From assembly GCF_030013205.1 (NCBI RefSeq), contig NZ_CP122648.1: a stretch of DNA of 64,000 nucleotides; one strand, 5' to 3'. The stretch's first letter is position 1; every line of letters starts with the position of its first letter. The DNA comes from Escherichia coli (GTDB taxonomy: Bacteria; Pseudomonadota; Gammaproteobacteria; Enterobacterales; Enterobacteriaceae). Made by a program: the position numbers. Positions 23,901 to 26,900 of the stretch are shown here, piece by piece.

Positions 23901-26900
23901 TTTCCGCGCCACCAGATCAAAAAGGGATGCTCAACGAGCTGGATGAAGAGCCGTCACCGCGTCGCCGTTCTCGTCGTCCACGCAAACGCGCACCGCGTCG
24001 TGAGGGTACCGCATGACAGTGGCGTATATTGCCATAGGCAGCAATCTGGCCTCTCCGCTGGAGCAGGTCAATGCTGCCCTGAAAGCATTAGGCGATATCC
24101 CTGAAAGCCACATTCTTGCCGTTTCTTCGTTTTACCGCACCCCACCGCTGGGGCCGCAAGATCAACCCGATTACTTAAACGCAGCCGTGGCGCTGGAAAC
24201 CTCTCTTGCACCTGAAGAGTTACTCAACCACACACAACGTATTGAGTTACAACAAGGTCGCGTCCGTAAAGCGGAACGCTGGGGGCCGCGCACACTGGAT
24301 CTCGACATCATGCTATTTGGTAATGAAGTAATAAATACCGAACGCCTGACCGTTCCGCACTACGATATGAAGAATCGTGGATTTATGCTGTGGCCGCTGT
24401 TTGAAATTGCGCCGGAGCTGGTGTTTCCTGATGGAACAGCATTAGGAAATTTATTAAAAATAAATAAATTTCATGAATTAAACAAATGGTGATTTAATGA
24501 TTTCATGAATATAAATAAATTCCGAAAAATAGCCTTACCCCATTGCAATTAATATATTCCCTAAGCTACAACCATAATTAATATTATATACCCCGTTAAC
24601 ACCTTCCGCCTCACATACAATATTTTTCCTGCTTTGTACATTAAGTTTTACTTAAAGATGAATTAAGTGGATATATAAATTTAAATATGCACAATATCCC
24701 ACTTGGTGATGAACAGATGTTACATTCAGTAAATCTTCACATTCATCATTAACAAAACAATCTATTTTTCTCTATCGGGGTTCTTTGTCTGAAAGCACCC
24801 GATTGTAGTTAAACTCATGGAATATAATTCAAGGATTATTATGTCTAAAAAATTAGGTTTTGCCCTGTCTGGTCTTATGCTGGCAATGGTTGCAGGTACT
24901 GCTTCTGCTGATATGGACGGTGGTCAGATTAACATCAGTGGCTTGGTTAGCGATAACACCTGTGAAACAAAAGTTGATGGCGGCAAGCAAGATGGCCTGG
25001 TTCTTCTGCAAACTGCAACGGTTGCTGAAATTACCGCTGGTGTATCTGAAACTGCTGTCGGTGCCAAAGCGAAACCGTTTAGCATTACTGTAGACTGCAG
25101 CAAAGCGACTCCGGGAGGCCAACCGACTCTGACATTCGGTTCAGTTTTCTTTGGTAACAGTCGTGGCACTTTGAATAACGATATGTCCATCACCACCCCG
25201 TCATCTGGTGTGAATATCGCCCTGCACAACATTGACGGCACCACTGTTAAACAAGTCAAAATTAATAACGCATCTGATGCTTACACTAAAGCATTAACCA
25301 ATAATGTTGCAGTCTTTGACTTCAAAGCCTCCTATGTTCGTGAAGACGACTCAACACCAGCAACGGCTGGTTATGTAAGAACCAACACAGCTTACACCAT
25401 CACCTACAATTAAGTTATTCGTTGGTGATTTAAATTACTACAAGGGTGCGACACCTATTGTCGCCCCCTTGTCTTGAAAACAATTCATGTCATGGATGGT
25501 ATATTTTGTTAAATAAAAAGAATATTGTCGCATTATGTGTTGCCAGTAGTATGGCATTTAGTATGCCTGTTATGGCTGATATTGTTATTTCCGGTACACG
25601 CGTCATTTATAAAAGTGATCAAAAAAGCGTTAGCGTACGCCTGGAGAATAAAGGCAATAGCCACCTGTTAGTACAAAGCTGGCTGGATACCGGTGACGAT
25701 AACGCTGAGCCAGGAAGCATTAATGTACCATTTACGGCAACACCTCCCGTTTCACGTATTGATGCTAAACGCGGTCAAACCATCAAATTGATGTATACCG
25801 GCAGCACCGTACTCCCCAGCGACAAAGAAAGCGTATTCTGGTTTAACGTGCTGGAAGTGCCCCCAAAACCAGATGCTTCAAAAGTAGAGAATCAGAGCCT
25901 GTTACAACTGGCTTTCCGTACCCGTATCAAGCTGTTCTATCGTCCGGCAGGATTAAACGGTAACCCGTCTGAAGCACCATTAGCCCTGAAATGGAAATGG
26001 GCTGAAGGGAAGTCTGGCCTGAGTGTATATAACCCAACGCCTTATTACGTCTCTTTCAATAACGCAGAGTTAATCGCTGGCGGTAAGTCGAACCCGCTCA
26101 ATGTAAAAATGGTTGCACCGAAAAGCGAAGAGATTTTCACCATAAGCGGTTCAGGCGGGAAAGCAACGTCAGGAAAGGTACATTTCTCCGCGATTAATGA
26201 TTTTGGCGGCGCAATTGAAGGCGATGTCAATTTGTAAGACCAGGGACCTTATGCAGCAGGAAGCCAATGTAATGAAAACAACGACATCGACTAAACGCCA
26301 TAATCTTACGCGTATCGGAATGTATTGCTCAATCATGTATAGCGGCGCTACCATCGGAGCCGAAAGTGTTGAGTATGACCCTACCTTTTTAATGGGTGGC
26401 AACGCTTCCAGTATTGATGTTAGCCGCTATAGCGATGGCAACCCGACTTTGCCTGGTGTTTACGATGTTAGCATCTATGTTAACGAGCAACCTGTTGCTA
26501 ACCTGGAGATCCCCTTTATCGCGATCCCCGATAAAAAGAATGCTCAAGCCTGTATTACCCTGAAAAATCTACTACAACTGCATATCAAGACACCCCCGGC
26601 AGACGAGGAAAATACTATCCTTCTTCCACGGGATGAAACGCTTGGCAACTGTCTTGACCTGTCGTTAGCCATACCTAAATCCTCAGTGAACTATGACCCC
26701 TCTGAACAACGTCTGGATATCAATGTTCCCCAGGCATGGGTGATGAAGAATTATCAAAACTATGTGGACCCATCACTTTGGGAAAATGGCATTAACGCGG
26801 CTACGCTGTCTTATAACATCAACGCTTATCGCAGTGAAAATTCAAATTATACAAATGATAGCGTTTATACATCGTTCAATGGTGGCGTCAATTTAGGGGC

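Follow-up and report, generated by a model that had tools for sequence, protein, structure and literature searches.

The folK-yadN locus and its composition

The window, i.e. the whole 64,000-nucleotide (64-kb) stretch of Escherichia coli chromosome analyzed here, carries folK followed by an operon of yadN, chaperone, usher, minor subunit and adhesin genes, and then panB (Table 1). The spacer between folK and yadN has a GC content of 0.295 (29.5%), compared to 0.515 (51.5%) for the window overall. Positions 24441-24841 (GC 0.277) have the lowest GC of any 401-bp stretch in the 64 kb, bearing out the original prediction of an extremely AT-rich, 348-bp folK-yadN spacer, which was found with the same coordinates and length. 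The AT-richness of this region far exceeds chance. The AT-rich tract starts within folK at approximately 24435, and the final 57 nt of this gene have a GC content of 0.19.

The yad operon lies on an AT-rich island of approximately 7 kb with a GC content of 0.43, versus 0.50-0.54 in the flanks. Among 69 Enterobacteriaceae loci, panB was normally the next gene after folK, across a gap of 90-150 bp with approximately 50% GC. A yad-like operon between the two genes was observed only in Escherichia species, some Citrobacter, Pseudocitrobacter and Superficieibacter, and in every case the spacer preceding it had 25-35% GC. The right edge of the island was mapped by homology to approximately 31414, from where the panB promoter region re-aligns with that of island-free species. 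The absence of the island from most other Enterobacteriaceae, its mapped edge and its GC content indicate that it is horizontally acquired DNA between folK and panB. No integrase or transposase gene was found in the gene content of the island, and the annotation places neither a recombinase gene nor a dedicated regulator gene beside the yad operon. A minor pilin gene of the operon is frameshifted by a tandem duplication of a 19-bp unit, which is present in 2 copies in the window and 3 in strain P15-25. Also unlike strain P15-25, the window has no P4-like island between hpt and gcd.

Relative to K-12, folK of the window is 96% identical up to 24434, approximately 45% identical over 24435-24477, and then identical at 14 of 15 positions in its last codons. 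The hypervariable 3' cassette occurs in three allele families, encoding TALGNLLKINKFHELNKW, EMLRQILHTRAFDKLNKW and LSLVEALQAKGFNELDKW. Strains K-12, CFT073 and EC958 each stand for one of the other three allele families in our alignment, and their spacers are 60%, 63% and 82% identical to that of the window, respectively, EC958 being the nearest of the three. They share the synteny of the window (folK, spacer, yadN-yadV(ecpD)-htrE-yadM..yadC, panB), and their spacers resemble that of the window in length (347-369 bp), GC content (0.26-0.31), common footprints and an identical leader/Shine-Dalgarno block. The window spacer allele is present in approximately 8% of the 5,426 complete E. coli genomes (roughly 450), with 435 genomes having a spacer at least 99% identical to it; swine O139-type isolates are one example of carriers.

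Table 1. Coordinates of genes, repeats and sequence elements at the folK-yadN junction (positions within the window).
Feature	Position	Strand	Remarks
folK (HPPK) coding sequence	24013-24492	+	Last gene of the upstream pcnB-folK unit; from the open reading frame and the annotation of a 100%-identical record
Hypervariable, AT-rich folK 3' cassette	24435-24477	+	Codons after ...FPDG; left limit of the variable island
yad chaperone-usher island (yadN, chaperone, usher, minor subunits, yadC adhesin)	24435-31413	+	From gene content, GC and panB-side homology
Y copy 1, ATAAATAAATT	24460-24470	+	In (AAAT)3, folK codons KINKF; exact in the window allele alone
X copy 1, ATTTCATGAAT	24468-24478	+	Within folK codons K-F-H-E-L; common only to the window and the EC958-type allele
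folK-yadN spacer, yad regulatory region	24493-24840	+	348 bp; orthologous to an H-NS-bound promoter island of K-12
X copy 2, ATTTCATGAAT	24500-24510	+	Begins 8 nt past the folK stop; exact in the window allele alone
Conserved element GAATATAAATAwwTTCyG(A)AAAA	24507-24531	.	25 bp; imperfect dyad GAATAT-N4-AwwTTC; longest invariant run of the distal spacer
Y copy 2, ATAAATAAATT	24511-24521	+	Inside the conserved 24507-24531 element; 8/10 versus the TCGATAAATT consensus
Candidate sigma-70 promoter TGGATA-16-CACAAT	24668-24695	+	8/12 matches; read from the alignment; within the proximal ~200 bp
Conserved footprint TGTnA-N6-GTAA	24718-24732	+	Invariant columns; weakly ArcA-box-like, putative
Conserved leader with Shine-Dalgarno AAGGA (24831-24835)	24817-24840	+	ATGGAATnTnAnTnAAGGATTnTTATG invariant in 9 loci
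yadN-type major fimbrial subunit gene	24841-25413	+	Start ATG at 24841

Direct repeats across the folK stop codon

Two 11-mers are repeated around the end of folK. The word ATTTCATGAAT (X) is present in exactly two copies in the window, spaced 32 bp apart. It had been described earlier as an imperfect repeat at approximately 24466 and 24501; a direct repeat does span the folK stop codon, but its copies are exact and start at 24468 and 24500. A second exact 11-mer, ATAAATAAATT (Y), was overlooked in the original prediction and likewise has exactly two copies in the window, starting at 24460 and 24511, such that the order along the sequence is Y-X ... X-Y. The shorter word AAATAAAT, previously noted as recurring several times, was indeed observed in three copies (24458, 24462 and 24513), the first two of which overlap to form (AAAT)3. 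Half of each 11-mer pair (X copy 1 and Y copy 1) falls within the folK coding sequence.

Of 2000 dinucleotide shuffles of 24440-24840, 10.4% contained an exact repeat of at least 11 nt; for the 96-nt core with 19% GC the figure was 4.6%. One 11-mer repeat alone is thus not far beyond chance. Two independent repeats of at least 11 nt were obtained in only 0.8% (24440-24840) and 0.4% (96-nt core) of the shuffles; by this post hoc test the pair of 11-mers, all copies of which fall within 62 bp, is nominally unusual, and pure chance is an uncomfortable explanation for it.

Both X and Y were present as exact repeats in the window allele only. K-12 and CFT073 hold 0-1 copies of either word, X copy 2 has 1-5 mismatches in other alleles, and the conservation of both exact repeats that iterated transcription factor sites would display was not found in the alignment of the K-12, CFT073 and EC958 alleles. 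Intermediates in EC958 and TB06052 suggest that each repeat copy may have arisen from independent point substitutions. The repeats are positioned 320-380 bp upstream of the yadN ATG, beyond the region that aligns to an approximately 200-bp CFT073 fragment (see Discussion), and are thus outside the functional promoter fragment. The short repeats at 24460-24521 are specific to the window allele and show no sign of function.

The sequence TCGATAAATT is the high-affinity nucleation consensus of H-NS, reportedly from Lang et al. 2007. Four matches to this consensus were observed at 8/10 (24448, 24461, 24512 and 24672) and none at 9/10, and nowhere else in the window do such matches lie as densely. 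In DNA of 19% GC, the 8/10 match of the Y word would be a property of composition and not evidence for a specific site.

Conserved elements and promoter candidates in the spacer

The sequence GAATATAAATA did not vary among nine loci representing at least three deeply diverged allele families, and the flanking TTCnG(A)AAAA varied very little. The dyad of this 25-bp element is perfect in the CFT073 family (GAATAT-AAAT-ATATTC). The element was not found in the yad-like loci of E. albertii, E. whittamii, cryptic Escherichia clades, Citrobacter or Pseudocitrobacter, and the footprints of the E. coli spacer were likewise not found in yad-like loci of other species. Compared by eye with the consensuses of ArgR, CRP, Fur, ArcA, CpxR, RcsB, IHF and Lrp, the dyad gave no convincing match.

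The region aligned to the proximal ~200 bp, which carries a promoter in CFT073, contains the putative sigma-70 promoter TGGATA-16-CACAAT. Its candidate -10 overlaps a conserved footprint (TGnAnAATA, 24688-24696), and consensus promoter scans missed it; transcription from this candidate would be predicted to start near 24702. No sigma-70 promoter was positionally conserved in all alleles; one weak candidate was observed in 5 of 7 alleles, 258-276 nt ahead of the yadN start codon and thus beyond the active CFT073 fragment. Three promoter-like hexamer pairs were counted in the 348-bp spacer versus 32 in 19.9 kb (1.6 per kb), approximately five times the regional density, and this count matches composition, with 3.5 expected from local shuffles.

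No intrinsic terminator was found after folK in 24493-24840, the predicted RNA fold of 24430-24560 was no better than that of shuffles (z = 0.11), and an Rfam scan of 23500-25600 at E-values up to 1 returned no match. Small open reading frames in the spacer (21-26 aa) were rejected as unconserved, including one of 21 codons at 24687 that is shortened to 9-11 codons in K-12 and CFT073. An in-frame upstream ATG at 24817 was rejected as the yadN start, as K-12 has a stop before the annotated ATG.

Discussion

H-NS silencing of the folK-yadN spacer is already known from publications on three other alleles. The K-12 spacer was H-NS-bound in all three ChIP studies compared and is listed as promoter island 156927_379 (PMC3661553; PMC5797941). 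The Grainger, Kahramanoglou and Oshima datasets all place K-12 yadN in the H-NS regulon, and its expression increased 2.4-fold when SlyA was overproduced (PMC5797941). The yadN promoter region was studied by Ellison et al. 2026 (PMC13245861), where yad of CFT073 was bound by H-NS in ChIP-seq, a Pyad-lux reporter with the ~200-bp CFT073 fragment rose more than 100-fold in Δhns, all yad genes of EC958 were derepressed in Δhns by qRT-PCR, and derepression of K-12 yad upon hns deletion was reported. That paper cites earlier yad work by Korea et al. 2010 and Larsonneur et al. 2016, the latter, as cited there, for regulation by ArcA and temperature. For the window allele we infer H-NS silencing from orthology, including the 82% spacer identity to EC958, together with composition, and it is on these two grounds that the original description, of a cryptic fimbrial operon whose promoter region is silenced by H-NS, holds. 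As the silenced alleles are only 60-82% identical to the window in the spacer, silencing would follow composition and position rather than exact sequence.

Our preferred reading, to which we give a probability of approximately 85%, is that the region comprises the 5' regulatory region of an H-NS-silenced yad operon together with the left end of the island, and that the repeats are allele-specific by-products. As demonstrated by experiment for orthologous alleles, H-NS would bind the AT-rich yad DNA and oligomerize across the promoter-proximal ~200 bp plus neighboring DNA, and this coverage would block productive transcription from the yadN promoter, such that the operon would be cryptic in laboratory culture. 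Repression may be lifted by counter-silencing or by the environment; published reports name SlyA overproduction, ArcA/anaerobiosis, low temperature, and serum or host cues. The repeats at 24460-24521 would be by-products of the very low-complexity, 19%-GC junction of folK and the island, dispensable for the promoter or for silencing.

That the repeated 11-mers are instead specific cis-elements, either iterated transcription factor sites or high-affinity H-NS nucleation sites that seed silencing, seems to us quite improbable. The X copies are spaced by approximately three helical turns, Y scores 8/10 in the densest cluster of H-NS consensus matches, and such a pair is rare in shuffles (0.4-0.8%). 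However, the K-12, CFT073 and EC958 alleles are without one or both exact repeats and yet are H-NS-silenced, the ~200-bp CFT073 fragment suffices for H-NS-repressible activity with the repeats lying beyond it, the first copies are folK codons, and the best H-NS motif match is no higher than 8/10. The earlier idea that the repeats serve a regulator or nucleation is therefore unsupported. Part of the repeat region may still be functional, independent of being repeated, since X copy 2 and Y copy 2 overlap the conserved 25-bp element. It is possible, though doubtful, that this element is itself a functional unit, compatible with H-NS silencing, that serves as the site of a dimeric regulator or counter-silencer or as a 3'-end signal of pcnB-folK. 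Its core is invariant in nine loci from families that are otherwise 60-63% identical across the spacer, its dyad is perfect in the CFT073 family, and, as no intrinsic terminator follows folK, the 3' end or the insulation of yad must depend on another mechanism. Against this, the element is missing from the yad-like loci of the other species listed above, lies beyond the active CFT073 promoter fragment and gave no convincing match to the regulator consensuses compared, and nine loci are a small sample in which conservation of a short block may stem from shared ancestry. A more specific version of this idea, which we regard as unlikely, is that the dyad after the folK stop could bind a new regulator that either counters H-NS at host or serum cues or insulates yad from pcnB-folK read-through; the folK C-terminal cassette would then mark how yad alleles and their control region are exchanged as one unit.

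The repeats could also be a structural scar, left when the island was inserted or alleles were exchanged, such as a target-site duplication, an att-like site, or a product of slippage or gene conversion. They lie exactly at the left limit of the hypervariable segment, with the break in identity at 24435, and slippage does operate in this lineage, as the 19-bp tandem duplication elsewhere in the operon shows. We nevertheless consider a scar very improbable, as the copies are 32-51 bp apart and do not flank the island, the match ends at 11 nt on both sides, and the island is without an integrase or transposase gene; a target-site duplication was rejected because no further copy of either 11-mer exists at the right end of the island or in the rest of the window. 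A phase-variation switch, whether by an invertible element, by Dam/Lrp at GATC sites or by slipped strands at (AAAT)n, is effectively refuted, even though phase variation is common among E. coli fimbrial operons and three AT-rich inverted repeats (I1-I3) are present in the region. The (AAAT)3 is within the reading frame of the essential folK gene, and the 435 genomes share a spacer of at least 99% identity. Both a fimS-type inversion and a pap-type GATC-Lrp switch were rejected, given a GATC count of 0 in 24440-24840, no recombinase gene nearby and the report that the yad locus is not phase-variable (PMC13245861).

The preferred reading of an H-NS-silenced regulatory region with incidental repeats places the locus beside known systems. 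The K-12 orthologue of the spacer, which is linked to foreign DNA and H-NS-bound, is listed among the promoter islands of Shavkunov, Ozoline and colleagues (PMC3661553). The promoter density of the window spacer equals the expectation from composition, although it was scored here by hexamer pairs whereas the islands are defined by PlatProm. Other H-NS-silenced chaperone-usher operons (elf/ycb, sfm, yeh and the fimE-fimA region) likewise have AT-rich upstream DNA, poor laboratory expression and derepression in hns mutants, and partial counter-silencing by SlyA is common to yad and other cryptic chaperone-usher operons (PMC5797941). Unlike elf/ycb, sfm, yeh and fimE-fimA, yad has no dedicated regulator gene beside the operon, and its AT-rich tract enters the 3' end of folK, an essential housekeeping gene.

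The locus has little significance past confirmation, and our main additions are comparative. The AT-rich island boundary falls inside the essential gene folK, and three silenced alleles sharing just 60-82% spacer identity with the window support composition-driven over sequence-specific silencing. Yad fimbriae are already established as adhesins that H-NS represses and that play a part in biofilm formation and bloodstream infection, and the invariant blocks of the spacer are concrete targets for mapping the yad promoter and its anti-silencer.

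Composition of the folK-yadN spacer

The window is chromosomal E. coli DNA. In a search of 5,426 complete E. coli genomes, an 801-bp query around the spacer matched 5,074 and shared 100% identity with a swine O139:H1 isolate, whose annotation gives the gene order dksA, gluQRS, pcnB, folK, fimbrial operon, panB. The end of folK and the start codon of yadN set the limits of the spacer (Table) and bear out the 348 bp of the original prediction. The extreme AT-richness proposed upstream of the yad operon was likewise observed, with a GC content of 0.295 in the spacer vs 0.515 in the window, and the lowest-GC 401-bp stretch in the 64 kb lies at 24441-24841. 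The AT-rich tract begins at about 24435, within folK, and GC falls to 19% over the last 57 nt of that gene. The window's next most AT-rich stretch (59184-59584, GC 0.319) lies in the divergent pdhR-aroP intergenic region (59148-59654), whose K-12 orthologue (121694_343) is a listed promoter island (PMC3661553).

Within the spacer we found no Rfam family, significant RNA structure, conserved small ORF or GATC site. There was also no intrinsic terminator in the spacer and no stable hairpin between folK and yadN, so read-through from pcnB-folK into yadN would have to be stopped otherwise, with Rho or H-NS, for example, as candidates.

Coordinates of features in and around the folK-yadN spacer
Feature	Position	Description
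folK	24013-24492	+ strand; ORF and annotation
Variable folK cassette	24435-24477	last ~14 variable codons
Y (exact 11-mer)	24460 and 24511	copies Y1 and Y2
X (exact 11-mer)	24468 and 24500	copies X1 and X2
folK-yadN spacer	24493-24840	348 bp
GAATATAAATAwwTTCyG(A)AAAA	24507-24531	conserved 25-bp block; imperfect dyad; overlaps X2 and Y2
TGGATA-16-CACAAT	24668-24695	candidate promoter
TGnAnAATA	24688-24696	conserved block
TGTnA-N6-GTAA	24718-24732	conserved block
TCATTAA	24746-24752	conserved block
Leader and Shine-Dalgarno	24817-24840	conserved block
yadN-type major subunit gene	starts 24841	ATG; annotation

The spacer as the left end of an island

A degenerate folK pattern scan of species-representative genomes returned 69 Enterobacteriaceae loci. 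In most genera (Salmonella, Klebsiella, Enterobacter, Kosakonia, Leclercia, Kluyvera and most Citrobacter), panB lies 90-150 bp behind folK, across a gap of ~50% GC. A yadN-like chaperone-usher operon was observed in Escherichia species, a few Citrobacter, Pseudocitrobacter and Superficieibacter, always behind a spacer of 25-35% GC. From about 31414 on, the window's panB promoter region can again be aligned with the island-free species, and together with the gene order in these relatives this identifies the spacer as the left-hand end of an island of ~7 kb that runs from 24435 to about 31413 and has a GC content of 0.43 vs 0.50-0.54 in the flanks.

Non-orthologous yad-like chaperone-usher operons (YadN identity 39-60%) have entered the folK-panB junction repeatedly, as observed at eleven loci in Escherichia species, Citrobacter, Pseudocitrobacter and Superficieibacter, each behind an unrelated AT-rich spacer of its own. 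At its 3' end the essential folK carries a hypervariable AT-rich cassette, in which window vs K-12 identity drops from 96% (up to 24434) to about 45% before a conserved LNKW-stop. The cassette peptides of three E. coli families are TALGNLLKINKFHELNKW, EMLRQILHTRAFDKLNKW and LSLVEALQAKGFNELDKW, and FolK of species without the island ends in ...L.AEKPAxW. This pattern places the island boundary inside folK and indicates that an exchange of the yad allele brings a change of the FolK C-terminus with it.

Within the island, a perfect 19-bp tandem duplication (GCGGAAGATAATTATCCAG, two copies, 29675-29712), not a multiple of three in unit length, frameshifts a yad minor pilin gene (NCBIfam PRK15262; ORFs 29423-29704 and 29583-30083). 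Of 444 genomes with the window allele, about 430 hold a single copy and keep the gene intact, about 10 have two like the window, and at least 4 swine isolates (P15-25, ETEC6333, ETEC6334, ETEC1701) have three; unit number thus differs between members of one narrow lineage. Between hpt and gcd, the public genome that matches best (O139:H1 P15-25) has a P4-like satellite island of ~12.5 kb (integrase, primase, ogr/delta-like gene, capsid-like gene, mazEF). This is missing from the window (about 39400-42530), where gcd (40143-42527) directly follows hpt, so the window strain is related to but different from P15-25.

Allele families and direct repeats

Alignment of nine E. coli loci, with EC958 and CFT073 then added, split the spacer into deeply diverged allele families, the EC958/ST131, CFT073 and K-12 types sharing 82%, 63% and 60% identity with the window, while the folK body kept 93-96% across all aligned alleles. 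At a threshold of at least 95% identity, the window allele is present in about 456 of 5,426 genomes (8%). None of the five conserved spacer blocks (Table) was found in yad-like loci of other species.

The predicted direct repeats across the folK stop are real. X (ATTTCATGAAT) is an exact repeat, and AAATAAAT occurs three times (two overlapping as (AAAT)3), in keeping with the several copies described. A second exact 11-mer, Y (ATAAATAAATT), had been overlooked, and the layout is Y-X ... X-Y, with X1 and Y1 forming folK codons (KFHEL and KINKF, respectively). Neither 11-mer was found elsewhere in the window. Shuffling produced one or more exact repeats of at least 11 nt in 10.4% of cases for 24440-24840 and in 4.6% for the 96-nt, 19%-GC core, so that a single such repeat is unremarkable; two independent repeats arose in 0.8% and 0.4%, which makes the pair nominally unusual in a post hoc test. 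Exact X2 and exact Y1 were observed solely in the window allele, X occurs once in EC958 and not in K-12 or CFT073, and the longest exact repeat in each other allele is 9 nt. This regulatory region thus does not conserve the repeats.

H-NS silencing of the yad promoter region

The H-NS-silenced promoter region, or promoter island, of yad is already known. In K-12 the yadN/folK spacer is a listed, foreign-DNA-associated promoter island (156927_379), to which H-NS binds "according to all studies" compared (PMC3661553). The yadN gene was H-NS-associated in the Grainger, Kahramanoglou and Oshima datasets and rose 2.4-fold on SlyA overproduction, and the same source counts it among the chaperone-usher operons that Korea et al. 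described as cryptic and H-NS-repressed (PMC5797941). In CFT073, Ellison et al. 2026 (PMC13245861) found yad bound by H-NS in ChIP-seq; in Δhns, the output of a reporter carrying the ~200 bases in front of yadN increased more than two orders of magnitude, and this effect was complemented. All yad genes were derepressed in CFT073 and EC958, and yad was induced both by serum and during growth in infected tissue; the paper also cites earlier work that links yad to ArcA and to temperature. K-12, CFT073 and EC958 stand for the three other allele families of our alignment, and since all are silenced, silencing tracks composition and position, not exact sequence. The predicted H-NS-silenced cryptic fimbrial promoter is thus right for the orthologues, and from these we infer with good confidence that silencing extends to the window allele.

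The repeats had also been proposed as regulator or nucleation sites. This region holds the window's densest cluster of sequences that match the H-NS high-affinity consensus at 8 of 10 positions, both Y copies among them. In DNA of 19% GC, such matches are compositional and not evidence of discrete nucleation sites. The copies are not conserved among alleles, and their region (24460-24521) falls outside the promoter-proximal stretch aligned to the CFT073 fragment (about 24641-24840), so specific repeat-based sites are disfavoured and that part of the prediction is unsupported. Reading the repeats as a scar of the island junction is disfavoured as well, given no match at the island's other end and an X/Y match that stops at 11 nt. 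A phase switch can in practice be discarded, as the spacer has no GATC and yad is reported not to be phase-variable (PMC13245861).

The conserved 25-bp block contains the dyad GAATAT-N4-AwwTTC, perfect in the CFT073-type allele, and is (nearly) invariant across families with otherwise only 60-63% spacer identity; compared by eye with the consensus sequences of ArgR, CRP, Fur, ArcA, CpxR, RcsB, IHF and Lrp, it gave no convincing match. A regulator might bind there, or the block may be tied to the unterminated pcnB-folK transcript; it is compatible with H-NS silencing.

We place a candidate promoter within the promoter-proximal 200 bp (Table). In the most likely mechanism, the AT-rich island end, these 200 bp included, would be coated by H-NS, and the coat would block productive initiation at the yadN promoter until counter-silencers and environmental cues relieve it.
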